From Candidatus Daviesbacteria bacterium (lineage in GTDB: Bacteria; Patescibacteriota; Microgenomatia; Daviesbacterales; UBA10151): a DNA stretch of 64,000 bases. Each line of letters opens with the position of its first letter. Within the stretch, counting starts at the first letter, position 1. A program made the translations under genes and the position numbers. Below are positions 36,030 through 54,809 of the stretch, piece after piece. Under the pieces are notes generated by a model, which ran no database searches, was not told the origin of the DNA, and saw only the letters and a list, made by a program, of their open reading frames with translations. The stretch lies in contig JAQUSJ010000001.1 in assembly GCA_028715175.1 (NCBI GenBank), forward strand, positions 674,386 to 738,385, read 5' to 3'.

Positions 36030-36059
36030 AAAGTATACTAATTATGGTATATTAACAAA

Positions 36060-37190
36060 ATGCAGAAGTCAAAAATTAGTTATCCTTCAACAGGAGTCAA
36101 TTATAATATCATGGACCCCTTAAAAAAATTGGCCCAAAAAGCAGGCAAACAAACTGCCCAAAATCTTATCAATTTTGGGATCAAAGAAGTTGAGATGAGC
36201 CGGGGGGAATCAGCCTATGTTTGGGAAGAAGAAAATTCATACAGAGCATTAGTTGTCGAAGGTCTGGGGACTAAAAACCTGGTGGCTGATGAGATGGCAA
36301 AAATCACCGGCAAAACTTATTACAACACTATCGCCCAAGATACCATTGCCATGATTGTCAATGACATCATAACAGTTGGCGCCCTTCCTCAAATCTTAAA
36401 TGCTTATTTTGCCTCGGGTGGACCCGATTGGTTTAAGGATACAAAACGCTCCAGCGCCCTGATAGAAGGTTGGGCCAAAGCTTGTGAAATGGCGGGAGTT
36501 ACATGGGGCGGAGGCGAAACCCCGGCACTTACAGGAATTATCAACCCCCAAACAATTGACCTGGCCGGTGCTTGTATTGGCATTATTAAACCCAAAGAAA
36601 GATTAATGCTGGGAAACAAACTTCAAGATGGTGATGCCATTTTACTGATAGAAAGCAGCGGCATTCATGCAAATGGATTATCGCTGGCAAGGGCTGTTGC
36701 TGACAAACTTCCGGAAAGATATATGACAAAGCTATCTAACGGCACATTATATGGCGACGCCTTACTCGCTCCTACATATATATATGTAAACTTGGTTAAA
36801 GGTCTTTTTGACGGCGGAGTCGATATTCATTATATGGTAAATATCACAGGACACGGCTTTAGAAAATTAATGAGGGCAAACCGGGAATTTAGTTATGTTA
36901 TCAATGAATTACCCGATCCTCAACCAATTTTTAAGTTTTTACAGCAACAATCCGAAAGTAGTGATAAAGATATGTATGGGAATTTTAATATGGGTGTCGG
37001 GTTTGCAATATATTTACCGGCGCAGCAAGTAGAAAAAGCCAAGGAAATAGCGAAACAACATAATTTAAAATCCTGGAATGCTGGAATAATTCAAACCGGT
37101 CCAAAACAAGTTGTAATAAGACAAGCTTCTTGCTCCGCAATAAAACCAAAAAATATTACCTTTCAAGCTGAAACTTTAGATATCCGTTAA
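36060..37190 (+). CDS. purM: phosphoribosylformylglycinamidine cyclo-ligase (AIR synthetase)
   Basis: PurM N- and C-domains, …DTIAMIVNDIITVGALPQILNAYFASGG… The TAA stop is embedded in a Family-A element. Confidence 0.85.
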   Translation: MQKSKISYPSTGVNYNIMDPLKKLAQKAGKQTAQNLINFGIKEVEMSRGESAYVWEEENSYRALVVEGLGTKNLVADEMAKITGKTYYNTIAQDTIAMIVNDIITVGALPQILNAYFASGGPDWFKDTKRSSALIEGWAKACEMAGVTWGGGETPALTGIINPQTIDLAGACIGIIKPKERLMLGNKLQDGDAILLIESSGIHANGLSLARAVADKLPERYMTKLSNGTLYGDALLAPTYIYVNLVKGLFDGGVDIHYMVNITGHGFRKLMRANREFSYVINELPDPQPIFKFLQQQSESSDKDMYGNFNMGVGFAIYLPAQQVEKAKEIAKQHNLKSWNAGIIQTGPKQVVIRQASCSAIKPKNITFQAETLDIR

Positions 37191-37215
37191 TCCTGAGCGT
37201 AGTCGAAGGACTAAT
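37186..37215. repeat. Family-A element copy (GTTAATCCTGAGCGTAGTCGAAGGACTAAT) providing the purM stop codon
   Basis: Read directly. Confidence 0.65.
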
Positions 37216-38191
37216 TTCTTTCTTCTCTATGACTTTTGGGAATTAACTTTTCGGACATCGAATCACCATTATAAATACAAGTTATAGCTTCCGCCAAAAG
37301 TTTGGCAACAGAAATTATCAAAACTTTCGGATTTTCTAACATTTCTTTTCTAATCGGTACTGTATCTGTTATAAAAATTTTATCTAAGGAAACAGCTTTA
37401 ATTTTTTCCGGCGCAGAACCGGAAAAAAGTCCATGCGTGGCAGCAACAGATACGCTTTTTGCCCCTCTTTCTTTAAATAATTTTGCAGCATCGCACAATG
37501 TTCCAGCCGTATCAATCATATCATCAACAATTAATACATCTTTACCTCTAACATCACCAATCATATTCACAATTTTACTCTCATTCCTTTTCATTACATC
37601 TCTCTCTTTAAAAACAATAGCAACACCGTCGGCACCAAGCAGATCCGCATAAAATGTGGCTTTCGGAACTCCGCCCTTATCAGGAGATGCAACCACTAAA
37701 TTTGATGCAAAATGTTTTTTTAACTCCGGAAGAAATGAATAACTGCTGTATAAATTATCCCAGGGAATTTCAACAAATCCGGGTTCCTGTTCCGAATGAA
37801 CATCAACTGTTAAAATTCTGGCTGCCCCCGCATATTCAATAAGTCTTGCGATAATCGATGCAGAAATTGGAACTCGAGGTCTATCTTTTCTATCCTGCCT
37901 TGAATATCCAAAATAAGGAATAATTGCGGAAACCTCAGAAGCTGATGATCTTTTAGCTGCATCTATTATCAAAAAAAGCTCTATAATGTTTGCGTCAACA
38001 GGCGGACAAGTCGGTTGAATTATAAAAACATCACGTTTACGTAAATTTTCTGGTATGGTAATTCTTTTTTCACCATCTGCAAAAACAGTAACAGTTTCAT
38101 CTACGTCTTTTCCTAAAATTTTAGCAATATCTTTCGCGAGAGGTAAATTTGCAGTTCCTGTTAAAAGTACGAAACCATTATCATTTGGCAT
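37211..38191 (-). CDS. prs: ribose-phosphate pyrophosphokinase (PRPP synthetase)
   Basis: …FADGEKRITIPENLRKRDVFIIQPTCPPVDANIIELFLIIDAAKRSSA…PYFGYSRQDRK… and PRPP-binding loop DDMIDTAGTL. Confidence 0.9.
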   Translation of the reverse strand: MPNDNGFVLLTGTANLPLAKDIAKILGKDVDETVTVFADGEKRITIPENLRKRDVFIIQPTCPPVDANIIELFLIIDAAKRSSASEVSAIIPYFGYSRQDRKDRPRVPISASIIARLIEYAGAARILTVDVHSEQEPGFVEIPWDNLYSSYSFLPELKKHFASNLVVASPDKGGVPKATFYADLLGADGVAIVFKERDVMKRNESKIVNMIGDVRGKDVLIVDDMIDTAGTLCDAAKLFKERGAKSVSVAATHGLFSGSAPEKIKAVSLDKIFITDTVPIRKEMLENPKVLIISVAKLLAEAITCIYNGDSMSEKLIPKSHREERN

Positions 38192-38198
38192 AGACTAT

Positions 38199-39179
38199 TT
38201 AAATTATATCACGTAAATTATCCATAATTCTAAGGTTAACATTTTTTGTCATATCCGGAATAAACCTTTTACCAGTTATTTTTTCATAAATCCCCATGTA
38301 AAGCCTGCTCATTTTGGCAATAAAACTTGGGGGCATCTTGGGGATTTTTCCTTTGCCAGTATATCCATGCTCTTTAAACCAAATCCTAAGAGGCTCTTTG
38401 TCATAGCTTTCCGGCTCCAACCCTTTTTTAAATTTTTCATTGTAAGTTTTCTTGACCCAATATCTTGAGGAATCAGGTGTATGAAGTTCATCAACCAGCA
38501 TCAGTTCCCCTTCATTATCAAAACCAAATTCATATTTTGTATCAACTAAAATTATACCGGCCTTATCACAAATCTTTTGTCCTCTTGCAAACAAAGCCAA
38601 GGCTGCAGTTTCCATCTGTTTCCATATCGCCGGTGTCACAATTTTTCTTTGTATGATATCTTTTTCGCTTAATTTTTCATCGTGATGTCCTGATTTGGCT
38701 TTAGTGGTAGGAGTAATTACAGGTTTTGGCAACTTTTGGTTTTTTCTTAAACCTTCTGGAAATTTAATGCCGTAAATTACTCTTTCTCCTTTTTCATAAG
38801 ACCCCCAAATTGATGTATCTGTCACACCGGTGATATAACCTCGAACGACCATTTCAACAGGAATAACCTGGCAATTCTTAACTACCATTACATTTGGATC
38901 CGGCACACAAAGTAAGTGGTTTTGAATAATATCAGAAGTTTTATTAAACCAAAAAGCTGAAAGCTGATTAAGGACTTGCCCTTTAAATGGAATATAACCT
39001 AGGACATGATCAAAAGCAGATTGCCGGTCAGTGGTAATGATCACTCTTTTATCATCTAATTCATAACTGTCCCGGACTTTACCGCTATATTTCTTCCCCA
39101 AATTCGGGATATCAACTGTTTTAAGTACATGAGCGATGTTTTCTATAATTATTCTTTTAGCAACCATATCTTGCGTCAT
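38199..39179 (-). CDS. purC: phosphoribosylaminoimidazole-succinocarboxamide synthase (SAICAR synthetase, long form)
   Basis: …GKVRDSYELDDKRVIITTDRQSAFD… 326 aa. The ATG overlaps the purE stop as ATGA. Confidence 0.9.
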   Translation of the reverse strand: MTQDMVAKRIIIENIAHVLKTVDIPNLGKKYSGKVRDSYELDDKRVIITTDRQSAFDHVLGYIPFKGQVLNQLSAFWFNKTSDIIQNHLLCVPDPNVMVVKNCQVIPVEMVVRGYITGVTDTSIWGSYEKGERVIYGIKFPEGLRKNQKLPKPVITPTTKAKSGHHDEKLSEKDIIQRKIVTPAIWKQMETAALALFARGQKICDKAGIILVDTKYEFGFDNEGELMLVDELHTPDSSRYWVKKTYNEKFKKGLEPESYDKEPLRIWFKEHGYTGKGKIPKMPPSFIAKMSRLYMGIYEKITGKRFIPDMTKNVNLRIMDNLRDII

Positions 39180-39206
39180 TGCGAGGAGTGTAGCGACGTG
39201 GCAATC
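39174..39206. repeat. Family-A element copy (CGTCATTGCGAGGAGTGTAGCGACGTGGCAATC) spanning the purE/purC junction
   Basis: Read directly. Encodes the purE C-terminal …IATSLHSSQ, its TGA stop and the overlapping purC ATG. Confidence 0.75.
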
Positions 39207-39682
39207 TTTTTCGCTTTTTCCTCCACATCCTCTACCAATTTCTTTTTATATGCCGCAATTTTTTCTTCCAAATTTTTATCAGAAGTTGCTAAAATTTGTA
39301 CTGCTAAAAGCCCAGCATTTTTGGCGCCATTAATAGCAACTGTTGCAACAGGCACTCCCGGCGGCATCTGCATAGTTGACAAAAGTGAATCTACCCCGTT
39401 TAATGTTCCACTTTGTATTGGAACCCCAATTACCGGCAAAGGAAACTCTGCTGCTATAACCCCTGCCAAGTGCGCTGCCATTCCTGCGCCGGCAATTATA
39501 ACTTTTACTCCTTCTGTTTTCGCTTTTTCTACCAACTCTTTAGTTCTTTCCGGAGAGCGATGAGCTGAAGAAATTGTCATTTCATACTCCACCCCAAACT
39601 CATCTAAAACTTTGCCGGCATTACACATCACTTCTAAATCAGAATCCGAAGCAGCGATAACGAGCACTTGCACGCTTTTCAT
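39176..39682 (-). CDS. purE: N5-carboxyaminoimidazole ribonucleotide mutase
   Basis: …VLVIAASDSDLEVM…TISSAHRSPERT…VIIAGAGMAAHLAGVIAAEFPLPVIGVPI… is a canonical PurE. Confidence 0.9.
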   Translation of the reverse strand: MKSVQVLVIAASDSDLEVMCNAGKVLDEFGVEYEMTISSAHRSPERTKELVEKAKTEGVKVIIAGAGMAAHLAGVIAAEFPLPVIGVPIQSGTLNGVDSLLSTMQMPPGVPVATVAINGAKNAGLLAVQILATSDKNLEEKIAAYKKKLVEDVEEKAKKIATSLHSSQ

Positions 39683-41088
39683 ATTCTTTTTATTATATCA
39701 ACCAATTCTAAAGACTTTTTTGCGGCATTACCAACATGATTTTTAGCATTCAATATCTCTGTAACTTCTATTGGTTTTAAATATTTTCTTATTTCGGAAT
39801 TTTCCGAAATCAAATCTTCCATCGGATTTGGATTTCCATCCTGGACACTTTCCCAAGCCCTCATGGAAATTTCTCGGAGTATTTCATGGATTTTTTGCCG
39901 ATCTGCACCTTTCTTAACTGCTTCTAAAATAATTCCTTCTGTGGCAGAAAACGGCCAGTAAATATCCAAATTTTTCCTTATTCGTTTATCGTTTATCGTT
40001 AAACTCTCAATAATATTTTTTGCAGAAGTTAACATCTCATCCGTTGCCAAAAACATTTCCGCACTAACTACTCTTCTGTTAGCCGAATCATCTAAGGTCC
40101 GCTCCAACAAAGTCTGGGAGGCATTATCCCAAGATACCCGTGACAGAGCAGCTACCAGTCTTGCGAGTGAACAAATCTGCTCGGATTTTATCGGGTTTTT
40201 CTTAAAAGGCATGGCCGATGAACCAACTTGCAAACTACCAAAAGGCTCCTGCCATTCACCGAATCCGGGTGATTGTATAATCCTTAAATCAAAAGCAAAT
40301 TTATTTAGAGACTGGGCAATAGATGCTAACAAATTCCCAATCCAAACTTCTATTTTTCGCGGAGCGGTTTGGTTGGTAATACTAGCCGCCTTAATTCCTA
40401 AATCCCCCATTACTTCATTTTCTAACTCATTCGCTCTACTTTCATCCAATAACTTTACGAAACTGGCTCCGGTCCCGACTGCCCCTTTTATCCCCTTGCT
40501 CTTTAAATTCTTTTTAACGAATTGTAAAAGTTCTAAATCCATTAACAAATCCTGTGCATAAAAAGCAAACCTGTATCCTAAAGTCGTAGGTTCAGCGGGT
40601 TGCAGATGAGTATATCCCATACAAGGTAGTTCCGCATATTTTTCAATTTTTTCTCCGAATACTTTTAGTAATTTTTGCAAATTATTTTCCATCAAATTCA
40701 AAGCTTCGGAAACTCTGATGGTTTCCGCATTATCCGAAATATCCATACTGGTGGCACCAAGGTGAATTTTTCCTCCGCCGACTTTAGCTTTTTCTGCAAA
40801 TTCTCTAATTGCCGCAACAACATCATGATTAGTATCTTTCTCTATTTCCCAAATCCTTTCAATATCTATATTATTCTGATTGTCTTCCAGATCTTTAAGT
40901 TCTTCTTTTGATACCAAACCCTCTTTTGCCTGGGCCCTTGCCAGAGCAACCCAAATCTTTCTCCAGAGTTTATATTTGTTTTCTTCAGAGAATATCGCCC
41001 TCATCTCCTCTGACCCATATCTCCAAGAGAAAGGGCTTTGGTAGCTATCATAGTTTTGACATTTGACATTTAAGTTTTGAGTTTTCAT
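39679..41088 (-). CDS. purB: adenylosuccinate lyase
   Basis: Fumarate-lyase fold with signature SSAMPFKKNP. 469 aa. Confidence 0.9.
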   Translation of the reverse strand: MKTQNLNVKCQNYDSYQSPFSWRYGSEEMRAIFSEENKYKLWRKIWVALARAQAKEGLVSKEELKDLEDNQNNIDIERIWEIEKDTNHDVVAAIREFAEKAKVGGGKIHLGATSMDISDNAETIRVSEALNLMENNLQKLLKVFGEKIEKYAELPCMGYTHLQPAEPTTLGYRFAFYAQDLLMDLELLQFVKKNLKSKGIKGAVGTGASFVKLLDESRANELENEVMGDLGIKAASITNQTAPRKIEVWIGNLLASIAQSLNKFAFDLRIIQSPGFGEWQEPFGSLQVGSSAMPFKKNPIKSEQICSLARLVAALSRVSWDNASQTLLERTLDDSANRRVVSAEMFLATDEMLTSAKNIIESLTINDKRIRKNLDIYWPFSATEGIILEAVKKGADRQKIHEILREISMRAWESVQDGNPNPMEDLISENSEIRKYLKPIEVTEILNAKNHVGNAAKKSLELVDIIKRI

Positions 41089-42617
41089 CAGTGTCTAAAT
41101 GCTCTCCTTCCTGAGAATATCATAGGGATTCCTGCTTCATTTGCCGCTTCAATTGACGCTTTGTCATTGACAGATCCGCCCTGCTCCAAAATTGCTCCGA
41201 TGCCAAACTTTGCTGCCAACTCTACCGAGTCTTGAAACGGAAAAAAACTATCACTTATCAGCATACCACCTTTGGCAAAATCCTTGGCCTGCTCCAGCGC
41301 AATCCTTGTTGCACCAATCCTGGATGTTTGCCCGGAACCAATGCCCCGCGTCATCGGGATATCCTTATCAATTACCAAAACTGCATTAGATCGCACAGCT
41401 TTAACACATTTAAAACCAAATCTAATCTGTTCGAGCTGTTTTTGAGTTGGTTTTTTCTTGGTCACCACTTTCCAGTATTTAAAACTTTCTTCAACATTAT
41501 CATCAAAATCCTGCAAAAGCACAGATCCTCCAAAATATTTCAGATCCCATTTTTCGCTTCTTGTTTTTGGAATTTCGCCAAAAGTATAAACTCCCATACT
41601 TTTTCTAACCTTTTTTAAAAGTTCCAACGCATCGTCTGTTACAAAAGGAACTGCCACAATATCAATATTTTCTTCCCTCTCGTTTTTGAAAGTAGCTACA
41701 TTTTTGGCTGCTTTTAAATCCATAGGTTTGTTTGTCACTATCACTCCGCCAAAAGCAGAAACCGGATCTGCTTCTATTGCAAAATAAAGTGCTTGATGAA
41801 CATCTTTACCTGTGGCAATTCCGCAAGGGCTTAAATGTTTTATCACGCAAGCCGCCGGCTCTTTAAATTGCCTGACAGCTTCCAGACCCGCATAAATATC
41901 TCCAGTGTTTGTGCCGGAAAGTTCCCTTCCCCAAAGATGTTTTAATTTCGCAATTGGAGAATTTGTTTTTGGCATATTGTATAGGGCACCTTCCTGGTGA
42001 GGATTTTCTCCATAGCGCAATACATTTGTTTTCCTAAGAGGAAGAGTTAATTCTTTAGGAAACTTTTCTTTGGAAAAAAACTTGCCGATTTGGCTGTCGT
42101 AAAATGACAGATGATAAAAAGCTTTTGCAGCCAATTCTTCCCTTAACTGCTTTGTGACTTTATTTTTTTGTAAGTTATCCAACACCAATTCATAATCATC
42201 AGGACTGACCACCACTAAAACATTTGCATTATTTTTAGCAGCTGCCCTAATCATGGTCGGTCCCCCTACATCTATTGTCTCAATACTAGGCCTATCCTCA
42301 AATGGATAAAGGTTGCAAACCACAATATCTATTTGCGGAACAACCAGTTCTTTTGCCTGTTTAGCATGAGCGGGATTTTGCCGGTCAAATAATATACCGG
42401 ACTCAATTTGAAAACTTATGGTTTTCATCCTACCGTCAAATGAATCCCTGGGGTTGCCCGTAATTTCATCAATAAGTGTAACTTTTATTCCGTTTTCTTT
42501 TAATACACTAGATGTACCGCCGGTAGAAATAATTTCATAACCCAAACCAAGAAGTACCTTGGCAAAATCAGCGATTCCTGTTTTATCATAAACACTAAGT
42601 AGCGCATATTTTTTCAT
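41088..42617 (-). CDS. purH: bifunctional AICAR transformylase / IMP cyclohydrolase
   Basis: MGS-like N-terminus MKKYALLSVYDKTGIADFAKVLLGLGYEIISTGGTS… plus the AICARFT domain. 509 aa. Confidence 0.9.
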   Translation of the reverse strand: MKKYALLSVYDKTGIADFAKVLLGLGYEIISTGGTSSVLKENGIKVTLIDEITGNPRDSFDGRMKTISFQIESGILFDRQNPAHAKQAKELVVPQIDIVVCNLYPFEDRPSIETIDVGGPTMIRAAAKNNANVLVVVSPDDYELVLDNLQKNKVTKQLREELAAKAFYHLSFYDSQIGKFFSKEKFPKELTLPLRKTNVLRYGENPHQEGALYNMPKTNSPIAKLKHLWGRELSGTNTGDIYAGLEAVRQFKEPAACVIKHLSPCGIATGKDVHQALYFAIEADPVSAFGGVIVTNKPMDLKAAKNVATFKNEREENIDIVAVPFVTDDALELLKKVRKSMGVYTFGEIPKTRSEKWDLKYFGGSVLLQDFDDNVEESFKYWKVVTKKKPTQKQLEQIRFGFKCVKAVRSNAVLVIDKDIPMTRGIGSGQTSRIGATRIALEQAKDFAKGGMLISDSFFPFQDSVELAAKFGIGAILEQGGSVNDKASIEAANEAGIPMIFSGRRAFRH

Positions 42618-43708
42618 GTTAAAACCTTTTTGAGTTCCCCTTTCTCTAAAGCTTCTTTTATTTCCATTGCTACTCTTTTTCCCATACTTAAATTTTGCCC
42701 GTATAAATACATACCATAAGGTGTAGCAAAGATACCAGGACTGCCGGGCATTCTCGGGGAAACATCAAACACAATTATTTCTTTTTTAGGAGGACCGGCA
42801 GTGATCATGGTTTGCAAACCGAATGGACCTATGACACCAGGTTTATATAATTTTTGGGTAGTTGCTACAAATCTTTCCCCCATATCAAATGCGTCTTCAA
42901 GAAGCGATTCCAAAACAGTTACGGCAATGTGTCCTGCTTCTTCGTATTTTACCTGTAAGCGACCTGCCTTCTCTAACTCCTCTTGTACTATGGCTGGACT
43001 ATGTACAACACCTTCTAGATTAGTTTGCCTTCTTGTGTCTGTTCCTATCAATTCCAATCTATCATTTAATGGGTCATAAAAGAAATTGAAGTTTACCTGT
43101 ACTCCCAAAAGAAATTCTTCAATAACAGCATTTTCTAAATTAGCTTTAGAGATAATACCCTTTTGTAAAAGAAAATCGCTCTTCTTAGTGTAAACTTCAT
43201 ATGAGTCGCATAGGAAGAACGAGCGTTCAAATCCTCTCGTCTTTTCCAAGACTTTAACAATACAAAGTCGGTCTATATCTTTAGGATTTTTAAATTGTTT
43301 GGGATATCTAATATTTGCAGCATCCAGCAAGTCATACTGATTCGGTTTAACTCCTCTTTCTTCGGCTTTCAGTAGAAATCTATTTCCAAACATCGGCACT
43401 TTAAATTTTTTCTCAATGGCATTGTAATCATTTATGTAAACCTCAAAAGACCGATGAGGCACAAATATGCAATTTCTTTTTAACAGCTGCTTTTGAACTT
43501 CCGGTTTTAAAACATCAGCAAATTTGTCTAACTCGATTACTTCATCAATGCAACCGAGCATACCTTGGCTTTTATAATATTTTACATAAGTTTTATCCCG
43601 ACCCTTTTGAACAATAACTAAAGTTTTAAACCCTAAATCCTTTGCACCACGGCATACATCCAAAGCGGAGTGTGAACCTAATACAGCAATGGTGTATTGT
43701 TTATTCAT
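42614..43708 (-). CDS. purP: archaeal-type ATP-grasp FAICAR synthetase paralog (PurP family)
   Basis: MNKQYTIAVLGSHSALDVCRGAKDLGFKTLVI…PHRSFEVY…MFGNR…GPFGLQ… is a PurP-like architecture (my recall of Methanocaldococcus PurP). More divergent than its neighbour. Confidence 0.65.
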   Translation of the reverse strand: MNKQYTIAVLGSHSALDVCRGAKDLGFKTLVIVQKGRDKTYVKYYKSQGMLGCIDEVIELDKFADVLKPEVQKQLLKRNCIFVPHRSFEVYINDYNAIEKKFKVPMFGNRFLLKAEERGVKPNQYDLLDAANIRYPKQFKNPKDIDRLCIVKVLEKTRGFERSFFLCDSYEVYTKKSDFLLQKGIISKANLENAVIEEFLLGVQVNFNFFYDPLNDRLELIGTDTRRQTNLEGVVHSPAIVQEELEKAGRLQVKYEEAGHIAVTVLESLLEDAFDMGERFVATTQKLYKPGVIGPFGLQTMITAGPPKKEIIVFDVSPRMPGSPGIFATPYGMYLYGQNLSMGKRVAMEIKEALEKGELKKVLT

Positions 43709-44795: not shown

Positions 44796-46205
<1,410 letters not shown>

Positions 46206-46206
46206 T

Positions 46207-47805
46207 TTATTCCCATTCCATAGTGGCCGGGGGTTTGTTGGTGATATCGTAAACCACACGGTTTACTTCACGAACTTCATTTACAATTCTTGTTGAAATT
46301 TTTTCTAAAAGATCAAAAGGAAGTTTAGCAAAATTGGCAGACATGGCATCTTGGGCTTCAATGGCTCGAATAGCAATTGTTTCCCCATACGCTCTTTCGT
46401 CTCCTCTGACTCCTGTTGTTTTAATTCCTGTAAAAATTGCAAATACTTGCCAAAGATTTTTAGCTAAATCAGTTTTTTCAATTTCCTGCTGAATAATTTT
46501 ATCTGCTTTTCTTAAAATTTCTAATTTCTTTTCAGTAATTTCACCAATAATTCTTACTGCCAATCCCGGTCCTGGAAAAGGTTGTCTATTTAAAATTTGC
46601 TCAGGCAATCCCAAAATCTTCCCAATTTTCCTGACTTCATCTTTATAAAAATTCCTTAAGGGTTCTATTAAAACAAGATTCATTTTTTTAGGTAAAGCCC
46701 CGACATTATGATGTGATTTAATCACTCGTGCATGTTTGGTGCCGGCACTTTCTATCACATCAGGATAAATGGTACCTTGGACCAAAAATTTTGCTCCACT
46801 TTCTTTAGCTAATCTTTCAAAAACCTCAATAAAAATTTTGCCTATTACTTTTCTTTTTTGTTCAGGATCTGCTACCTCTTTTAATGCTTTTAAGAATTCT
46901 TTTTTTGCATCTATAATTTTTATATCCATATTGTAATGTTTGGCAAAAACCCCTCTTAAGGTATCTGTCTCACCATCTCTCATCAATCCCGAATCTATGT
47001 AATAACAAGTTAAATTTTTACCAATGGCTTTATAAACTAAAAGAGCAGCTACCGAAGAATCCACCCCGCCAGACAGTGCGCATATTGCTTTTTCTCTTCC
47101 TACAGAATCTTTAATATCGGAAATTATATTTTCTACAAATTTTTCATCTATTGTTGATCTTTTGGGATTTAATCCGCAGATCTTTAAAAAATTTTCCAAA
47201 ATTTCTGTTCCAAATTCCGTATGCATAACTTCGGGATGAAACTGTATTCCATATATTTTTTTATTTTTATTTTCCACAACAGCATGAGGAATTGTTTTTG
47301 TAGTAGCAATTGTCTCAAAATTCTCTGGTATTTTAACGACCTCATCACCATGACTCATCCAAACCGTGATACCACTTGGAACTGTGGATAATAAATTAGA
47401 AGATTTTTTTATAGTAAGTTCTGCCGGACCATATTCTTTTTTATACCCTGGTTTAACTTCGCCACCCAAAAGCTGACACATTAACTGTTGTCCGTAACAA
47501 ATACCTAAAATTGGAATACCTAACTCAAATATTTTTTTGTCAATTGTCGGCGCGCCTTTTTCATAATCGCTTGCGATTATATCGCGACGCTTCTTGTAAC
47601 GCGGTGCGTTATAAACAGATGCTGGCCCTCCTGAAAATATTATTCCTTTTACTTTCTTGTCATTCTGGAGCCCTTCGCTACGCTCGAGGGTAAACTCCGC
47701 GATAGAATCTTCCGGTGCAACAATTTCACAATCCACCCCCAACTCTCTTATTCTTCTCCCAATCAAATGCGCTGTTTGCGATCCAAAATCAACTAAGACA
47801 ATCAC
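46207..47805 (-). CDS. guaA: GMP synthase (glutamine-hydrolysing), with in-frame palindromic insertions in the GATase domain
   Basis: MIVLVDFGSQTAHLIGRRIRELG…, GICYGQQ (catalytic Cys), SGGVDSS PP-loop, C-terminal …PPATMEWE. Confidence 0.9.
   Translation of the reverse strand: MIVLVDFGSQTAHLIGRRIRELGVDCEIVAPEDSIAEFTLERSEGLQNDKKVKGIIFSGGPASVYNAPRYKKRRDIIASDYEKGAPTIDKKIFELGIPILGICYGQQLMCQLLGGEVKPGYKKEYGPAELTIKKSSNLLSTVPSGITVWMSHGDEVVKIPENFETIATTKTIPHAVVENKNKKIYGIQFHPEVMHTEFGTEILENFLKICGLNPKRSTIDEKFVENIISDIKDSVGREKAICALSGGVDSSVAALLVYKAIGKNLTCYYIDSGLMRDGETDTLRGVFAKHYNMDIKIIDAKKEFLKALKEVADPEQKRKVIGKIFIEVFERLAKESGAKFLVQGTIYPDVIESAGTKHARVIKSHHNVGALPKKMNLVLIEPLRNFYKDEVRKIGKILGLPEQILNRQPFPGPGLAVRIIGEITEKKLEILRKADKIIQQEIEKTDLAKNLWQVFAIFTGIKTTGVRGDERAYGETIAIRAIEAQDAMSANFAKLPFDLLEKISTRIVNEVREVNRVVYDITNKPPATMEWE
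47564..47611. repeat. cluster of small GC-rich palindromes (ATAATCGCTTGCGATTAT; AACGCGGTGCGTT) in frame in guaA
   Basis: Read directly. Encodes …NAPRYKKRRDIIASDYEK…, not expected in the GATase domain. Confidence 0.6.
47658..47709. repeat. Family-A element copy in frame in guaA (TGTCATTCTGGAGCCCTTCGCTACGCTCGAGGGTAAACTCCGCGATAGAATC)
   Basis: Read directly; encodes …SIAEFTLERSEGLQNDKK…. Confidence 0.7.
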
Positions 47806-48590
47806 GGCTTTGCCTCCTTAACAAACTTTACAATGTTTTCAAACAAAGGTAAACCTTGTGGTTTTGTAATATTTCCCCTTCGCCAGTTTGGGTGCTGTTC
47901 CACCCGGACAAAACATTCAGGATGCGGCATCATCCCTAAAATCCTGCCTGTTGTATCTGTTATTCCTACTATCGAATTTAAGGAACCATTTGGATTTTCT
48001 GGATATTCCATTGTTGGATTTCCATTTTCATCAACATATCTGAATGCCACTAAATTTTGATCTTCAATTTCTTTTAGAATTTCCTCATCGGCAATAAATT
48101 TACCTTCGCCATGGGCAATCGGCAACCAGATTATTTCATTATCCATTTCTCTCAAAAATTGGCTGTTATTTTTATTATTAACTTTAACTTTTATCCATCG
48201 GCATTCAAAATGTCCCGAATCGTTATTTGTTAAACTAACTCTCATTTTTCCAATTTCTCTAAATGGCAAAAGACCAGTCCTAACTAAAACCTGGAAACCA
48301 TTACAAACTCCCAAGATGGCAGTATTTTTTCGTTCAATAAATTTCTGCAATTCTTCTTTAAAAAATGAAGTTAGCTCAATTGCCAAAATTTTTCCGGAAA
48401 CTATGTCGTCCCCATAGGCAAAACCGCCGGGCAAAGCAAGAATTTGATAATCCTTCAGTTTTACAGAACCGTCTCTTAATTGATTTACATGCACTATTTT
48501 TGAATCCCCGCCGGCAATCTTAAAAGCATAAGCCATCTCTTCGTCTCTATTTGTCCCATCTGCTTTTAAAACTAAAACTTTTGGTTTCAT
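47802..48590 (-). CDS. purQ: phosphoribosylformylglycinamidine synthase, glutaminase subunit
   Basis: MKPKVLVLKADGTNRDEEMAYAF… and GVCNGFQ (class I GATase Cys). 262 aa. Confidence 0.9.
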   Translation of the reverse strand: MKPKVLVLKADGTNRDEEMAYAFKIAGGDSKIVHVNQLRDGSVKLKDYQILALPGGFAYGDDIVSGKILAIELTSFFKEELQKFIERKNTAILGVCNGFQVLVRTGLLPFREIGKMRVSLTNNDSGHFECRWIKVKVNNKNNSQFLREMDNEIIWLPIAHGEGKFIADEEILKEIEDQNLVAFRYVDENGNPTMEYPENPNGSLNSIVGITDTTGRILGMMPHPECFVRVEQHPNWRRGNITKPQGLPLFENIVKFVKEAKP

Positions 48591-51466
48591 GAAAACATCT
48601 CCTTCATTGGTTTCTGCCAGACTTTTTTCAAATTTGGAACTTCCGCACTAAAGAAATTCTTAACATCAATAATAGGAGCTTTTTGTGTTTTACCTAAAGT
48701 TATGTAAGGAATATTTTTGAATAATTGTTTGGCAACTTTTTCATCTTTCACCTCAACAATAAAACATCCTGTTGTCTCATTAAATAGCAACTCACTCACC
48801 TCCGAGGAACCCATTCGGCCACCTCGGAGGTGTGACGAAGTTACTCCTCCGAGGTGGATATTTACCCCGCAATTTCCCCCAACACACATCTCAAAAATAG
48901 CTGAAATTACCCCACCTTCAGATATATCATGACATGACAATATTTGTCCATTTCGTATTCCCTTGTAGATTGCATCAAAAGTTTTTGGCAGTAACTTTAG
49001 GTCTATTCTTGGAACAGAATCTGTCTCCAGATTATTTACTTGATGATATACAGATCCTCCTAAATTCTTATCCATTTCCCCAACCAAAACAATTGTTGAA
49101 CCGACCTTTTTCAAATCGGCAGTAACAGTCTTTCTTGTATCCTCTATTTTCCCTAGAACCGAAATGCAAAGCGTTGGTGGAATTTTAATAACGCTTCCAT
49201 CTGCCCCACGGTAAGTTGAAGACAGGCTATCTTTACCGGAAATCACCGGAATTTTAAAAATTTTCATAAAATCCACCACCGCATCAACTGATCTATCAAG
49301 CGACCAAAGAGACTCTTGATCTGGAAAAGGCCAAATATAATTGTTTATTAAAGAAGCATTTTTGTAGTCTCCGCCAACTGCGACAAAATTTGATAAGGCT
49401 TCAGTCGCTGCCCAGATACTTCCCCAGTATGGATCTATATTATTAAAAACCGGATTTAATCCGTGTGAAATAATCATGCCATATTGTTTGGAAAGTACGG
49501 GACGCAAAACCGGAGAATCATTAGGCCCATCTAAATTTTTTCCTGAATATGGCTGAAGGTCATTTGTTCCCTGAACTAAATGGTCATACAACCGGACAAT
49601 TGGCTCTTTTGAACAGACATTTCCGTGAGATAATACTTTTCGCAAAACCTTGATCCATTCTTCCTCTGATTTTGGTTGTATTGGTTCTTTGATCTGACGA
49701 CTGACGACTGACGACTGACGACTTGCTTTCAAAACCCGTTTCGGCAACCCATGGTGCAAAAACTGCATATCCAAATGGCCCACTACTTTACCACCAAAAT
49801 AAACTTTTAATTTTTTACTGCCATCAAATTTTCCTAAAACCGTACTTTCAACATTATATTTTTTACAGATCATTTCAAAAACCTTAAGGTTTTTCGGATC
49901 CAATACTACAATCATTCTTTCCTGTGATTCTGACAAAAAAATTTCCCAGGGAGCTAAACCTTGATATTTTAAAAGGGCATTTTTTATGTCAACCGTAACT
50001 CCTAAAGTTTCACCAATCTCGCCAATGGCAGATGAAAATCCTCCTCCGCCGCAATCTTGCACTAACCTTATTAAATCTTGATCTCTTGCTTCAAGCAGCG
50101 CATCAAACATCCGTTTTTCTTCAATTGCGTTTCCGATTTGCACTGCCGAAGAGTGTGTCGTATAAGTATCTGCAGTCATTTCCCCGGACGAAAAGGTAGC
50201 ACCATGAATCCCATCCCTGCCAGTTCTACCCCCTACACAAATTATTAAATCATTTCTTTCAGGTTTATCTTTTATCGCATATTTTTTTGGCACTATTCCA
50301 TATGCTCCTACAATAACCGTTGGTCTAGCCCTAAAATCTTTGTGAAAATGGACTGATCCGTTATTAGTAGGAATCCCCATTCTGTTTCCGTAATCCCTTA
50401 CCCCTGAAACTACTCTTTTCAATAAATATTCCGGTGGAAGACATCCTGCTGGTAACTGGGAAGCCGGCAAATCAATCGGAGCAAAACAAAAGATATCTGT
50501 TGAGGCAATATTTTTGGCTCCTTTACCTGTTGCAGCAATGTCGCGGAACACTCCGCCTGATCCGGTCATCGCTCCACCATATGGCTCAATAGCTGATGGA
50601 GCATTATGGGTTTCGACTTTACCACAAATCCCAAAACCGCCGTAGAAATCCATCACACCCGAATTGTCAACAAATGCTGAAACAATATTTTTATCATGCT
50701 TTAGCGCTTCTTTTTTCAATCTATCAATGAGCGGCTCTTTCTTTTTTCCATCAACTAATAACTCAGCTTTAAAAGTTTTATGCCCCGAGTGTTCACTCCA
50801 AGTTTGGGCTAAAGTTTCCAGTTCTAAATCAGTGGGGTCCCTTTTTTCTGCTGCAAAATATTCTTGGATCTTTTTCATCTCTTCCAAATTAAGAAAAAGC
50901 TGATCTTTAGATAAATCCCGCAACTCTTGATCATTCAAACTTCTTATAGGAATTGTTTGAATTTTGCCAGGTTGTCCTTTCAAAATAAGCGTTTGCGGCT
51001 CATCTTTCACGATATGCTCGATAAGCGAGTTATAGAGTTTCAGTTTTTCTACGATCTTTTCGACTTCTGCTTTTTTTAAGCTTCCGTAAAATGCATACTC
51101 AAAGGATGAATCGCATGCCGGCAGTTTAATTCCCAAATCATCTGCAGCTTTGATAATGGATGTAACTTCCGGATTCATCACCCCTGGCTTGTAAGCTATT
51201 TCAATAATCACAGACTTCACCTCCGAGGTGGGCTTTGACTCCTCGGAGGTGGAATTAATCGTATATCTTTGATTAATTGATTCAGATAATAATTTTTCAG
51301 CCAAAATTTTGGCCTCTTTTTCAGATATTCCTTCCAATCTATAAACTTTGATCGCAGAAACTCTGGTAATATTTTTAATTCCCAACATCCGATGGATGTC
51401 ATTTAAGATACCATCTCCTTTTAAATCTGGTCCAACTATTGTTTGTACTCTGACTTTTTGTATCAT
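48587..51466 (-). CDS. purL: phosphoribosylformylglycinamidine synthase: tandem PurS-PurS N-terminal domains fused to PurL (FGAM synthase II)
   Basis: Two PurS-like ~75-aa modules at the N-terminus, then a small-PurL body. 959 aa. Family-B palindromes in frame at 51218..51252 and 48797..48857; heptamer array at 49694..49721. Confidence 0.9.
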   Translation of the reverse strand: MIQKVRVQTIVGPDLKGDGILNDIHRMLGIKNITRVSAIKVYRLEGISEKEAKILAEKLLSESINQRYTINSTSEESKPTSEVKSVIIEIAYKPGVMNPEVTSIIKAADDLGIKLPACDSSFEYAFYGSLKKAEVEKIVEKLKLYNSLIEHIVKDEPQTLILKGQPGKIQTIPIRSLNDQELRDLSKDQLFLNLEEMKKIQEYFAAEKRDPTDLELETLAQTWSEHSGHKTFKAELLVDGKKKEPLIDRLKKEALKHDKNIVSAFVDNSGVMDFYGGFGICGKVETHNAPSAIEPYGGAMTGSGGVFRDIAATGKGAKNIASTDIFCFAPIDLPASQLPAGCLPPEYLLKRVVSGVRDYGNRMGIPTNNGSVHFHKDFRARPTVIVGAYGIVPKKYAIKDKPERNDLIICVGGRTGRDGIHGATFSSGEMTADTYTTHSSAVQIGNAIEEKRMFDALLEARDQDLIRLVQDCGGGGFSSAIGEIGETLGVTVDIKNALLKYQGLAPWEIFLSESQERMIVVLDPKNLKVFEMICKKYNVESTVLGKFDGSKKLKVYFGGKVVGHLDMQFLHHGLPKRVLKASRQSSVVSRQIKEPIQPKSEEEWIKVLRKVLSHGNVCSKEPIVRLYDHLVQGTNDLQPYSGKNLDGPNDSPVLRPVLSKQYGMIISHGLNPVFNNIDPYWGSIWAATEALSNFVAVGGDYKNASLINNYIWPFPDQESLWSLDRSVDAVVDFMKIFKIPVISGKDSLSSTYRGADGSVIKIPPTLCISVLGKIEDTRKTVTADLKKVGSTIVLVGEMDKNLGGSVYHQVNNLETDSVPRIDLKLLPKTFDAIYKGIRNGQILSCHDISEGGVISAIFEMCVGGNCGVNIHLGGVTSSHLRGGRMGSSEVSELLFNETTGCFIVEVKDEKVAKQLFKNIPYITLGKTQKAPIIDVKNFFSAEVPNLKKVWQKPMKEMFS
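48797..48857. repeat. Family-B palindromic element cluster (CACCTCCGAGG / CCACCTCGGAGGTG / CCTCCGAGGTGG), in frame in purL
   Basis: Read directly; encodes …HLGGVTSSHLRGGRMGSSEVSE…. Confidence 0.75.
49694..49721. repeat. heptamer tandem array CTGACGA x4, in frame in purL
   Basis: Read directly; encodes …SRQSSVVSRQ…. Confidence 0.8.
51218..51252. repeat. Family-B palindromic element (CACCTCCGAGGTGGG-N8-CCTCGGAGGTGG), in frame between the two PurS modules of purL
   Basis: Read directly; encodes …TSEESKPTSEVKS…. Confidence 0.75.
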
Positions 51467-51470
51467 TTTT

Positions 51471-52802
51471 TCATCCTTTTTTACCTCGCCGTAGCGTCTC
51501 GCGAAGACGGGCTACATCCCTCCAGCCAATATCTGTTCTATAGTGTAAATTATTTCCTTCAATGTTAACTTTTCTCAATGCCCGATATGCCCTCTCTCTT
51601 GCCTCTATCACATTTTTTCCCTCATCCATCACAAACAAAATCCTACCCCCCGCTACCATATAACCCCCATTAACTTTTTTAATACCAGCCCCGTAAATTT
51701 TGGCTTCAGCCTTAATAGCTTTATCAATTCCAAAAACTTTTTTACCTTTAACTGATTGATAATCAACAGGATAACCTTTTGCCACTGCCGCTACCACTAC
51801 CCTTACCTTTTTATCTATCTTCAAATTTAATTTTCCAATAGTACCATTGATAATATCCTGGCTGACCTCATATAAATCATTTTTAATACTCGGTAAAATG
51901 ACCTCTGCTTCAGGATCTCCCCATCTGGCATTGAATTCTATAACAAAAACCGCTCCTCTAATCACAATGCCCCCTAAATATAAAACCCCCTTGTATGGTC
52001 GCCCATCTATCTTTAACCCATCCACAGCCTTTTTGAAAATTTCCTTGACTTGTTTCCTGATATTTTCATCAACAATTAACGGGTTTGAAACACAACCCAT
52101 TCCTCCGGTATTTGGACCTTCATCACCATCAAATACTTGCTTATGATCTTGTGCAAAACCCACTACTTGAAAATTTTTCCCATCACACAGTGCAAAAGCG
52201 GAAAACTCTTCACCGATTAACCACTGCTCCAAAAGATAAGTCTCTCCACTTTTACCAAATCTCGCCATTTGTTTTATAGCATCAATTGCCTGACGCCCAT
52301 TTTTTGCAGGAATTGCTCCCTTGCCTTCCGCCAGCCCTGATGCTTTAACAAACCAACTAGCTTTAGATTTGCTATTTACAAACTTAATCCCATCTTTTGT
52401 TGATGAAAAAACATGATAGTCAGGAGAGGGAATTTGATACTTTTTCATAAAACCCCTGGCCCATGCTTTATCCCACTCAAGCTGTCCGGCTTTTTTGGTT
52501 GGTCCCACTACCTTAATTCCCTCCGCCAGTAAAGTATCTGCTAAACCTGCTTCCACTGCATTATCTTGTGCAACATCTACCAAATCAACTTGCTCTTTTT
52601 TGCAAATTTCCAATATTTCTTTAATGCTGGTTGTTTTTAAGTATTGGTAAGTTACAACCGGCTTTTTAGTATTAATCTGCATTAAATCATTTCCCGGTAC
52701 CACTAGAATTTTTCCCACACGTTTGCTTTGTCCATACTTATCTACTAGAGTTGCACCTCTTCCTCCCCCATCTATTATCATTATTGTCTTTAATTTATTC
52801 AT
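51471..52802 (-). CDS. purD: phosphoribosylamine--glycine ligase
   Basis: MNKLKTIMIIDGGGRGATLV…, ATP-grasp. 443 aa. The C-terminal …RLRETLRRGKKG overlaps a degenerate Family-A-like GC-rich motif at 51476-51512. Confidence 0.9.
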   Translation of the reverse strand: MNKLKTIMIIDGGGRGATLVDKYGQSKRVGKILVVPGNDLMQINTKKPVVTYQYLKTTSIKEILEICKKEQVDLVDVAQDNAVEAGLADTLLAEGIKVVGPTKKAGQLEWDKAWARGFMKKYQIPSPDYHVFSSTKDGIKFVNSKSKASWFVKASGLAEGKGAIPAKNGRQAIDAIKQMARFGKSGETYLLEQWLIGEEFSAFALCDGKNFQVVGFAQDHKQVFDGDEGPNTGGMGCVSNPLIVDENIRKQVKEIFKKAVDGLKIDGRPYKGVLYLGGIVIRGAVFVIEFNARWGDPEAEVILPSIKNDLYEVSQDIINGTIGKLNLKIDKKVRVVVAAVAKGYPVDYQSVKGKKVFGIDKAIKAEAKIYGAGIKKVNGGYMVAGGRILFVMDEGKNVIEARERAYRALRKVNIEGNNLHYRTDIGWRDVARLRETLRRGKKG

Positions 52803-52803
52803 A

Positions 52804-53403
52804 TTAGTTACATAGTTTTGCTAAAATATCCACATATAACTTATTCTCTTTAACTTTTAATCTTTTATATAAAGATTCCACGGTGTCTTCTGGCTTAATC
52901 TTCTCAAAGCATCTACCTAGAACCGGCCCAAAGTCAAATTCATGAGATAGAAGATGATTTGTACATCCGGCATAAGTGGCATGATTATCAAGAAATTTTT
53001 GAATCGCCTCATCAGTCATTTTCTTCCTATTCCATAAAGCAAGTGTCCCATCGGGGCTTCTGACAACGCCACTCATTGTATCCGGTATTAACCCGGGGTG
53101 AGTATTTAAAATTCTGTTAGAGAATGCGTCAATGACCTCATCTAAAATAATCTGTTTCCAACCTGCAAGACAAATATAATCAGGATTTATTTTTTTCAAA
53201 AAGGGTAACAAATTCTTTTTTCTTGACAATATTTTAATTGGTAACTTATGTTTTCTTGCCCTCTTAAGACCCAGTGCTCCAGGAGTATCGCTGACAACTA
53301 CCGCAATCTTAGCATTAATCTTTCCCTGTTTTATCCCGTCAATAATTGCTTGAAGATTCGTTCCTGTGCCGGTATTGGATATCAAAATAGCAATTCTTTT
53401 CAT
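52804..53403 (-). CDS. purN: phosphoribosylglycinamide formyltransferase
   Basis: MKRIAILISNTGTGTNLQAIIDGIKQGKINAKIAVVVSDTPGALGLKRARKHKLP… 199 aa. Confidence 0.85.
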   Translation of the reverse strand: MKRIAILISNTGTGTNLQAIIDGIKQGKINAKIAVVVSDTPGALGLKRARKHKLPIKILSRKKNLLPFLKKINPDYICLAGWKQIILDEVIDAFSNRILNTHPGLIPDTMSGVVRSPDGTLALWNRKKMTDEAIQKFLDNHATYAGCTNHLLSHEFDFGPVLGRCFEKIKPEDTVESLYKRLKVKENKLYVDILAKLCN

Positions 53404-54809
53404 TTGCCTAAAACATCATAATCTATTTCTTTTCTTCGCTCACCAATATCCACCGGATAATTACCGTTAAATAAAGCCGTACATAATAGATCCTCTGATA
53501 ATCCGATTGCTTTTATTAATCCCTGATAAGACAAATAATGCATCGAGTCAACTCCTAACTCTTTCTCTATCTGCTTAATATTCTTAACAGCTGCAATTAA
53601 TTCTTTTTGGTCCGGAGTATCGATTCCGTAAAAATCAGGAAACTTAACCGGCGGTGAGGAAACTAACAAATGGACCTCCTTTGCTCCGGCGCTCCTTATC
53701 ATCTTAATAATTTCTTTGGAAGTTGTCCCTCTGACAATCGAGTCATCTACCACTATTACTTTTTTACCATTTAGTACATACCTTACCGGATTAAGTTTTA
53801 GCTGGACAATATGCCCCCGGGTATGTTTTTCAGGAGAAATAAATGTTCTGTGAATATAACGGTTTTTAATTAAACCCATTTCAAAAGGGATTCCTGATTG
53901 TTTGGAAAAACCAATTGCTGCAGGAATGGCAGAATCGGGAACGGGAATTACTATGTCAGCCTTAATATTATTCTCCTTTGCTAACTCCCTACCCAAATTT
54001 TGTCTGACCTGGTCAACACTTTTTCCTAAAATTATACTGTCCGGTCTGGCAAAATATACATATTCAAATACATCCAACTTTTGCGTCCCTTTTTCTATTT
54101 GAACACTTTTCAAACCTTTATCATCAATTACTATCATCTCGCCAGGTTTGACTTCCCTCACAAATTCTGCACCAACAATATCCAAGGCGCAAGTCTCTGA
54201 TGCAATAATATATCCGCCGTTTAATTTACCCAGACTCAAAGGTCTGATACCAAAACTATCACGCAGAGCAATAAGTTTTTCTTCATCCATTATTAACAAA
54301 CAAAATACACCGGTAAACAGCGGGTAAGCTTTTTTGATTGCATCCTCCATCTTAAAACCTTCCCGCATTAACACTGCAATAGCTTTAGCAATCATCTCCG
54401 AATCATTCAGTCCGTCTGTAGTAACTTTTTTAGTTTTTAAAAATTCTTCTAATTTTTTAGTTGAAGGAAGGTTACCATTATGGACTAAAGCAATAGAATT
54501 ATTGGCGGAAACTTTTTCTATAATTGGTTGGGCGTGGGATTCTATTGAATCACCCGAGGTAGAATAACGGTTGTGACCAATTGCTAAATGACCTTTTAAT
54601 CTTTTTAAATCTTCTTCAGCGAAAACATGCGCAACTAAACCCATGCCTTTGTGTAGATAGATTTTTTTGCCGTCAGAAGATGCTATACCAGAAGATTCTT
54701 GACCTCTGTGTTGAAGCGCCCAAAGGCCTGGATGAACTAAACGGGCTGCCTCAAAACCCTGCCCGTATACTCCAAATATCCCACATTTTTCTCTAATGCT
54801 AGTTCCCAT
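53400..54809 (-). CDS. purF: amidophosphoribosyltransferase
   Basis: N-terminal nucleophile MxxxxxxKCGIFGV, Ntn-GATase domain and PRTase domain. 469 aa. Confidence 0.9.
   Translation of the reverse strand: MGTSIREKCGIFGVYGQGFEAARLVHPGLWALQHRGQESSGIASSDGKKIYLHKGMGLVAHVFAEEDLKRLKGHLAIGHNRYSTSGDSIESHAQPIIEKVSANNSIALVHNGNLPSTKKLEEFLKTKKVTTDGLNDSEMIAKAIAVLMREGFKMEDAIKKAYPLFTGVFCLLIMDEEKLIALRDSFGIRPLSLGKLNGGYIIASETCALDIVGAEFVREVKPGEMIVIDDKGLKSVQIEKGTQKLDVFEYVYFARPDSIILGKSVDQVRQNLGRELAKENNIKADIVIPVPDSAIPAAIGFSKQSGIPFEMGLIKNRYIHRTFISPEKHTRGHIVQLKLNPVRYVLNGKKVIVVDDSIVRGTTSKEIIKMIRSAGAKEVHLLVSSPPVKFPDFYGIDTPDQKELIAAVKNIKQIEKELGVDSMHYLSYQGLIKAIGLSEDLLCTALFNGNYPVDIGERRKEIDYDVLGK

Follow-up and report, generated by a model that had tools for sequence, protein, structure and literature searches.

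Formate- and ATP-dependent formylation of 5-aminoimidazole-4-carboxamide ribonucleotide (AICAR) has been demonstrated only for the cluster Ia PurP protein MJ0136 of M. jannaschii (cited in PMC3261824). Clusters Ia and Ib of this family are marked by a (K/R)GG(K/R)G loop (M. jannaschii residues 161-165) and by Asn258, which contacts the AICAR carboxamide, and cluster II by a loop that is two residues longer and has lost the glycines, together with His258 (Brown 2011, PMC3261824). Exactly one cluster II gene is found per genome having a cluster Ib gene (PMC3261824), and a survey of 1,403 complete genomes, in which PurP was restricted to archaea, reported the equivalent groups II (cluster Ib) and III (cluster II) to co-occur 1:1 in the same 61 archaea (Cruz 2019, PMC6486802). 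Here we describe the same pair, PurP-A and PurP-B, beside a full-length purH in the purine operon of a bacterium. The genes lie in a 64-kb stretch of contig JAQUSJ010000001.1 (hereafter the window) from a Candidatus Daviesbacteria genome (Microgenomates) that belongs to the Candidate Phyla Radiation (CPR), the group that the preliminary description of this DNA had correctly guessed. PurP residue positions follow MJ0136 numbering unless PurP-B numbering is stated.

PurP-A (43701-44720, minus strand, 339 amino acids) and PurP-B (42614-43708, minus strand, 364 amino acids) both carry the Pfam domain DUF1246 (approximately 4e-42 each) followed by DUF1297 (4e-62 and 4e-68), and both match PurP crystal structures (E = 1.6e-69 and 5.8e-104; three solved PurP structures). 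PurP-A scores 351 bits against PF1517 (2r84) and 297 bits against MJ0136 (2r7k), and PurP-B 238 bits against MJ0136. The domain pair and the structure matches bear out the PurP-like assignment first made for these open reading frames (ORFs), and a check against PurK and PurT placed PurP-B firmly inside PurP, a PurK match being obtained for PurP-A only (E = 2e-4). Both are true PurP-family ATP-grasp proteins rather than PurK or PurT.

The two ORFs belong to different classes of the family. In an alignment of the window proteins with Protein Data Bank (PDB) sequences and family representatives at 50% identity, the PurP-A loop reads AGGKG, with the glycines all kept and Ala at the first position, and position 258 is Asn; in PurP-B the loop reads EKTRGFERS (TRGFERS, two residues longer) and His260 aligns with M. 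jannaschii position 258. His27, Ser94, Ser266 and Arg314, named as formyl and phosphate contacts (PMC3261824), are kept in both proteins. In the 72 cluster I and 80 cluster II sequences from 80 loci, loop type and residue 258 go together without a single exception. Invariant in cluster II (PurP-B numbering) are E155, R158, E161, R162, N206, N208, R227, Q228, E257, H260, D315, S323 and P324, and this cluster also retains the lysine of the ATP-grasp fold (K156), both hinge glutamates (EE) and, at position 310, an acidic residue. Because each ORF bears the loop and residue-258 signature of its class, PurP-A and PurP-B are the known archaeal cluster Ib and cluster II pair (PMC3261824, PMC6486802) and not a recent duplication or arbitrary paralogs. 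The PurP-B start and the PurP-A stop overlap by 8 nt (ATGAATAA). Archaeal pairs (PF1517/PF0421, Sulfolobales, Pyrobaculum, Korarchaeum) show the same two signature classes and likewise have one gene per class, adjacent and within a purine cluster, whereas the window pair resides in a bacterial (CPR) host, is joined into a bacterial-style pur operon beside purH, and differs by the Ala at the first loop position of PurP-A and by a Leu at the Arg264 position of PurP-B.

PurP had been described as rare in bacteria; in this lineage it is not, being present in all 40 Microgenomates loci examined, and when a single genome was scanned for each GTDB species, relatives of PurP-B turned up in at least 589 genomes. 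The published archaea-only statement fails likewise, because CPR genomes carry PurP, and our literature search found no published link between purP and the CPR. Overall the family is small, with 587 clusters (50% identity) in a set of 1.84 billion representatives. The best 40 PurP-B matches (59-81% identity) are all of Microgenomates type, with informative titles naming Daviesbacteria, Curtissbacteria, Roizmanbacteria, Levybacteria, Gottesmanbacteria and Woesebacteria, and relatives at 54-58% identity come from DPANN archaea, Thermoplasmatota, metagenome-assembled genomes (MAGs) labelled Methanosarcinales, Saccharibacteria, Peribacteria and Parcubacteria. The titles ‘uncultured Gammaproteobacteria’ and ‘uncultured Methanosarcinales’ of many ‘binchicken’ Third Party Annotation (TPA) MAGs (within L001-L040, L064, L068, L072 and L080 of the loci described below) were taken as unreliable; in gene order and tree position these MAGs agree with Microgenomates or Woesearchaeota, which makes the titles look like stand-ins. 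The pair also occurs on contigs titled ‘Spirochaetota’ (L049, 1.9 Mb, with PurP-A split into two ORFs) and ‘Nevskiaceae’ (L062).

We compared the surroundings (10 kb to either side of the match) of 80 loci carrying PurP-B relatives, L001-L080. Both PurP classes are present at one locus in 70 of the 80, mostly less than 300 nt apart. Twelve Daviesbacteria-type loci have the gene order of the window over the part covered by the contig, with purH directly after PurP-B, and all 13 Daviesbacteria-type loci have intact PurP ORFs that overlap. The other Microgenomates loci have the order purF-N-D-L-Q-PurP-A-PurP-B-purB-E-C-purM, a cluster without purH in which the pair sits between purQ and purB. Exceptions with purH outside the Daviesbacteria are L029 and L036, in which purH lies between the two PurPs and purK is present (in L029 a gene for a histidine phosphatase follows purH), and L030, which has a purH fragment. 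A Curtissbacteria-type variant has purA between PurP-A and PurP-B (L014, L019-L021, L023, L026, L035), and the variant with an adjacent pair in a cluster without purH is represented by L017-L018, L022, L024-L025, L028, L033-L034 and L037-L040; the genes flanking the L018 and L034 clusters are unrelated to purine synthesis. In the Woesearchaeota locus L044, which has no purH, an ORF of approximately 206 amino acids without a Pfam match lies between PurP-A and PurP-B (9327-9944) and is possibly an unannotated pathway gene. Gaps of 500-850 nt between PurP-A and PurP-B are also seen in L067, L069, L074, L077 and L080.

A neighbour-joining tree of PurP (100 bootstraps) splits the A and B classes with a support of 100. 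Microgenomates PurP-B is monophyletic (support 90), as is Microgenomates PurP-A when the ‘Micrarchaeota’ contig L048 is included (support 93), and the PurP-A and PurP-B subtrees are largely congruent, indicating that the two genes are transferred and inherited together. Sequences from other CPR groups are intermixed with those of Woesearchaeota and Nanoarchaeota, which indicates several CPR-DPANN exchanges. Throughout the Microgenomates, the archaeal Ib and II pair is passed on vertically as a standard component of the purine operon, and it is found in other CPR groups as well. What was supposed to be an archaeal signature is thereby extended to bacteria, and gene sharing between CPR and DPANN is documented for core metabolism. 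The L048 contig (CAYVQS010000054.1) has the cluster order purB-PurP-A-PurP-B-purA-purC-purE-purF, and with its PurP-A nested in the Microgenomates clade it reflects a transfer from CPR to DPANN or else a binning error. Relative to L003 (Daviesbacteria STB_119), window PurP-A is 98% identical (synonymous divergence, dS, 0.08), PurP-B 77% (dS 1.2), and purH, purB and later genes 87-94%; PurP-B of the window groups with L001 and not with L003 in the tree. This mosaic divergence and grouping together suggest a recombination breakpoint at the PurP-A/PurP-B junction.

The full-length PurH reported beside the PurP genes is confirmed, with its catalytic residues conserved. The gene (41088-42617, minus strand, 509 amino acids) is annotated as a bifunctional AICAR transformylase and inosine monophosphate (IMP) cyclohydrolase (NF002049, 521 bits against a cut-off of 402), and aligns identically to human ATIC at K266 and H267, which we take to be catalytic in the transformylase, and at K66, Y104, D125 and K137, which we take to be those of the cyclohydrolase. 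The purN translation retains the N-x-H...D catalytic motif. Against five relatives, the ratio of non-synonymous to synonymous divergence (dN/dS) is 0.06-0.16 for PurP-A, PurP-B and purH, the same range as for purB and purL; all three genes are maintained under purifying selection. The intact residues and low dN/dS mean that the functional overlap is real and not decay.

We favour, with moderate confidence, the proposal that PurP-A and PurP-B jointly act as an AICAR formyltransferase that depends on formate and ATP, with PurH providing ring closure and a parallel folate route. According to this proposal, the pair would have been acquired once near the base of the Microgenomates, DPANN-like archaea being either its donors or its co-owners, and would have been inherited as a two-gene unit since. 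The two proteins would work together, probably as a hetero-oligomer in which the ATP-grasp site of PurP-A would be canonical and that of PurP-B remodelled, and would formylate AICAR with formate and ATP independently of folate. The adjacent PurH would supply IMP cyclohydrolase and a parallel transformylase dependent on 10-formyl-tetrahydrofolate (10-formyl-THF), and FolD and GlyA would feed the folate route, FolD making 10-formyl-THF for PurN and PurH. With the PurP pair and PurH in parallel, there would be two one-carbon sources for AICAR formylation. We infer the formate-dependent activity of the pair and its assembly into a complex from MJ0136, the strict pairing, the gene overlap and the operon position. 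Methanosarcinales, which have full-length PurH, two PurP-like genes, PurN and folates (PMC3261824), show the same coexistence of PurH, PurN and the pair, which makes AICAR formylation look redundant in both cases, but the three genes of the window (PurP-A, PurP-B and purH) are contiguous with overlapping ends, and the host is bacterial with a genome contig of approximately 0.74 Mb.

A number of points weigh against the proposed joint formyltransferase. MJ0136 (2r7k) belongs to the same fold family and shares the formyl, phosphate and carboxamide contacts with window PurP-A, but it is a single PurP accompanied by PurO, whereas the window has the Ib and II pair with PurH, and both window proteins fall below the cut-offs of the NCBIfam equivalogs for formyl-AICAR (FAICAR) synthetase (PRK13278; 406.8 against 580 for PurP-A and 293.5 against 556 for PurP-B). 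PurP-B is without the glycine-rich loop, and its residues at the positions of Glu230, Asn320 and Asn258 are Gln, Gly and His, respectively, so that it may not perform the same chemistry. The P. furiosus proteins PF1517 (Ib) and PF0421 (II) were each reported to be inactive alone as AICAR formyltransferase, and no cluster Ib or cluster II enzyme has a demonstrated activity (PMC3261824). Since intact PurH, FolD, GlyA and PurN are all present, a folate-independent route is not strictly needed, and no formate source was found in the window.

The purH-less Microgenomates clusters bear on an alternative that we consider unlikely, in which PurP-B, as a cluster II protein, would not be a formyltransferase subunit but either an IMP cyclohydrolase, binding FAICAR and closing its ring to IMP, or the cyclase half of a formate-dependent synthase of two proteins that turns AICAR into IMP, the pair replacing both halves of PurH and being redundant in Daviesbacteria. 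Most non-Daviesbacteria Microgenomates clusters have the pair at the place of purH, with no purH, PurO or other candidate within approximately 10 kb, but purH may sit elsewhere in these genomes. Crenarchaeota, whose IMP cyclohydrolase was still unidentified in 2019 (PMC6797443), carry exactly the Ib and II pair (PMC3261824, PMC6486802), and methanogens with a single PurP of cluster Ia have PurO instead; the pair is nevertheless accompanied by PurH or PurH2 in Archaeoglobi, Methanosarcinales, Daviesbacteria, Peribacteria and L029/L036. A cyclase role would fit with cluster II keeping the formyl (His27, Arg314) and phosphate contacts while exchanging Asn258 for an invariant His and losing the glycine-rich ATP loop, although its conserved K156, EE hinge and acidic residue 310 suggest that nucleotide is still bound. 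A further point against this alternative is the reported inactivity of cluster Ib alone, which would be unexpected for a self-sufficient formyltransferase. Should PurP-B prove to be a cyclase, the pair would fully replace PurH in most Microgenomates, as in Crenarchaeota, and the Daviesbacteria operon with both systems would be a natural bacterial test bed. The operon context, with the pair at the place of purH in most clusters, sharpens a question from archaeal biochemistry, namely what roles cluster Ib and II PurPs have and what carries out closure of the purine ring in organisms lacking PurH and PurO. This question is directly testable since the source organisms are mesophilic and the proteins should express easily.

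We regard it as very unlikely that the Daviesbacteria pair is a redundant leftover beside PurH, or that its role lies apart from de novo synthesis, for example in salvaging or detoxifying AICAR (ZMP). Such a role would be compatible with the intact PurH and the nearby folate one-carbon genes, and Korarchaeum has the pair but lacks the other pathway genes (PMC3261824), hinting at use on imported AICAR. However, purifying selection on the pair is as strong as on purB and purL, and in every one of the 13 Daviesbacteria-type loci the pair is intact and overlapping, at the head of its operon behind a promoter-like site; in the window this is TTGTAA-17-TATAAT (44726-44754, minus strand), directly upstream of PurP-A and a consensus match only (10 of 12 positions).

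The preliminary description had pointed to the absence of purT and purK from the cluster, which extends to the entire 64 kb, and had suggested a PurT-like step for the second PurP. PurE (39176-39682, minus strand, 168 amino acids; TIGR01162, 198 bits) contains SSAHRSP and AGMAAHLAG, SAHR and AAHL-type motifs being presumably those of class I PurE. No purK was found in the window or in the Daviesbacteria loci, leaving the class I-type PurE of the window to stand alone. A second PurP working at another ATP-grasp step, whether as a PurT-like glycinamide ribonucleotide (GAR) formylase or as a PurK-like N5-carboxyaminoimidazole ribonucleotide (N5-CAIR) synthetase compensating for the missing purK, might be entertained given these absences, the class I-type motifs and the chemical resemblance that we see between aminoimidazole ribonucleotide (AIR) and AICAR and between formate and bicarbonate, but is highly improbable: PurN with its catalytic residues is encoded in the operon here and in related clusters, making a PurT-like role unnecessary, PurP-B has no PurK match at all, most Crenarchaeota have PurK together with the pair, so that there is no anticorrelation, and PurK can be dispensable at high CO2 (PMC3261824). 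PurP-B was rejected as a PurK substitute because bona fide purK (ATP-grasp and PurK_C) coexists with both PurPs in L029 and L036 as it does in Crenarchaeota. When the L029 PurK was used as query, the few named matches were to Acidobacteria and Chloroflexota and none to Daviesbacteria.

A second archaeal parallel concerns PurL, for which a form termed mdPurL, with a separate PurQ and usually no purS, has been described in six methanogens (Brown 2011, PMC3261824). Window purL (48587-51466, minus strand, 959 amino acids) encodes a PurS-dimer-like N-domain (amino acids 1 to ~165), a linker (~187-230) and an smPurL core (193-957; TIGR01736, 531 bits over the same residues). Pfam recovers the linker at 187-230, AIRS and AIRS_C, and PurS over amino acids 86-151 (4e-06, no single stretch being over threshold), and a weak NCBIfam match covers amino acids 26-72. 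In keeping with the likeness to large PurL suggested at the outset, phmmer aligns amino acids 89-240 colinearly with residues 84-238 of Salmonella lgPurL. An AlphaFold2 (AF2) model (predicted local distance difference test, pLDDT, 85.7) has two beta-alpha-beta-alpha-beta repeats, and Foldseek matches it to the lgPurL N-domain and linker over approximately 232 columns (E of about 2e-9) and to several PurS monomers over approximately 80 columns, with probabilities of 0.96-0.99 for the better ones and weak E-values. BLASTP of the two N-terminal halves against each other gave E = 1.0, that is, no repeat by sequence. The PurS-PurS-PurL fusion originally described is therefore upheld as regards the PurS-dimer-like N-domain and the separate PurQ, but the duplication is visible in the predicted structure and not in the sequence. 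The N-terminal 190 amino acids form one uninterrupted frame, and relatives keep the fusion to the linker and AIRS domain; these relatives, obtained by a word-index search, are contig-end fragments only and served as an alignment, not as a distribution. Since they carry the same continuous N-terminus, the frameshift artefact considered as an alternative is ruled out.

No stand-alone PurS was matched among the scanned window proteins (ORFs of at least 100 amino acids, a few overlapping or marginal ones excepted), and the gaps beside purL are 4 nt or less. The separate glutaminase subunit PurQ is encoded at 47802-48590 (minus strand, 262 amino acids; TIGR01737, 201 bits, above the cut-off of 178) with a 4-nt overlap with purL, and the formylglycinamidine ribonucleotide (FGAM) synthase is predicted to be a two-protein enzyme of mdPurL and free PurQ. 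Rather than the intermediate form it was taken for, window PurL is the already described mdPurL and the norm in these CPR loci: complete PurL ORFs are nearly all 930-1050 amino acids long, and the same is true of two Woesearchaeota loci and one Micrarchaeota locus. Like the mdPurL of Methanomicrobiales, Methanocella and some Methanococcus (PMC3261824), it combines an smPurL core with approximately 200 extra N-terminal residues of PurS-like role, PurQ is encoded separately and purS is missing from the vicinity; unlike these, it is bacterial, its N-domain is colinear with the Salmonella lgPurL N-domain and linker, and its relatives include lgPurL-like PurL-PurQ and PurD-PurL-PurQ fusions. The former is a 1278-amino acid protein (L016, 2674-6507) and the latter a single frame of 1660 amino acids with PurD, PurL and PurQ segments in order (L038, Woesebacteria, 1-4980); either may be real or an assembly artefact. 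Compared with Salmonella lgPurL (1t3t), the N-domain and linker are alike by structure but the fused glutaminase domain is missing, and compared with the T. maritima PurLQS complex (3d54), each half of the N-domain matches a PurS monomer but no free PurS accompanies it.

ORF listing and profile searches recovered every gene previously named in the 18.7-kb block as an intact ORF at the coordinates given for it. Two minus-strand operons, purF-purN-purD-purL-purQ-guaA (54809 to 46207) and PurP-A-PurP-B-purH-purB-purE-purC-prs (44720 to 37211), are combined with plus-strand purA and purM, and adjoining genes overlap by 1-8 nt or are separated by 1-7 nt. The upper operon begins with the amidophosphoribosyltransferase gene purF (53400-54809, minus strand, 469 amino acids; TIGR01134, 484.9 bits, above the cut-off of 350), followed by purN, encoding the folate-dependent GAR formyltransferase (52804-53403, minus strand, 199 amino acids; TIGR00639, 123.7 bits, below the cut-off of 150; Pfam Formyl_trans_N, 1e-31), and purD, encoding GAR synthetase (51471-52802, minus strand, 443 amino acids; TIGR00877, 381.6 bits, above the cut-off of 288), and it ends with guaA for guanosine monophosphate (GMP) synthase (46207-47805, minus strand, 532 amino acids; NF000848, 706.6 bits). 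Downstream of purH, the second operon encodes adenylosuccinate lyase (purB, 39679-41088, minus strand, 469 amino acids; TIGR00928, 420.6 bits), PurE, SAICAR synthetase (purC, 38199-39179, minus strand, 326 amino acids; NF009251, 435 bits, above the cut-off of 371) and ribose-phosphate diphosphokinase (prs, 37211-38191, minus strand, 326 amino acids; NF002320, 361.6 bits). AIR synthetase is encoded by purM (36060-37190, plus strand, 376 amino acids; TIGR00878, 213 bits, below the cut-off of 236; Pfam AIRS and AIRS_C) and adenylosuccinate synthase by purA (44808-46205, plus strand, a 465-amino acid ORF; NF002223, 568.5 bits over amino acids 46-463). In the purA ORF the family model sets in only after approximately 45 residues, and related proteins have 425-455 amino acids; its true start probably lies downstream of the annotated one, which would widen the divergent intergenic region between purA and PurP-A.

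As had been noted, folD and glyA are nearby, 6.1 kb beyond purF: folD at 60911-61753 (minus strand, 280 amino acids; NF010786, 191 bits, under the equivalog cut-offs) and glyA, encoding serine hydroxymethyltransferase, at 61756-63060 (minus strand, 434 amino acids; NF000586, 479 bits, above the cut-off of 335). The block is a lineage-typical Daviesbacteria purine operon pair and covers the synthesis of phosphoribosyl pyrophosphate (PRPP) and, but for a dedicated PurK, all steps to IMP, as well as the adenosine monophosphate (AMP) branch (PurA, PurB) and the final GMP step (GuaA). The description of the pathway as near-complete is sound for this gene content, but profile scans of nearly all long ORFs found no purK, purT, guaB, formate-THF ligase or separate purS in the 64 kb. 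A full pathway is not unusual for the CPR, contrary to what had been assumed, since complete de novo IMP synthesis has been reported in 32% of 399 CPR genomes (PMC11608272); cluster content, mdPurL and the full pathway in a CPR genome are mostly ordinary for the lineage. Rfam returned nothing at gathering thresholds over the whole window, leaving control by ZTP, purine or PRPP riboswitches or leaders unsupported, and at E <= 1 over 35900-55300 gave a chance ALIL match only.

Elsewhere in the window, profile scans gave no family match for the ORFs at 18290-19438, 19435-20103, 23715-24206 and 25663-26775. A 307-amino acid protein (12019-12942, plus strand) has the catalytic core only of histidyl-tRNA synthetase (HisRS; Pfam tRNA-synt_His), with no anticodon-binding domain reported, and by its domain content may be either a truncated paralog of HisRS or a HisZ-like protein. 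A membrane protein of the TspO/MBR family is encoded at 22611-23066 and a 633-amino acid WD40/beta-propeller protein at 26772-28673 (both minus strand). Just upstream of the purine block, a lower-glycolysis cluster (29292-33435, minus strand) comprises genes for phosphoenolpyruvate (PEP) synthase (801 amino acids, 1106 bits), enolase (252 bits, below the cut-off of 300) and a dPGM-type phosphoglycerate mutase.

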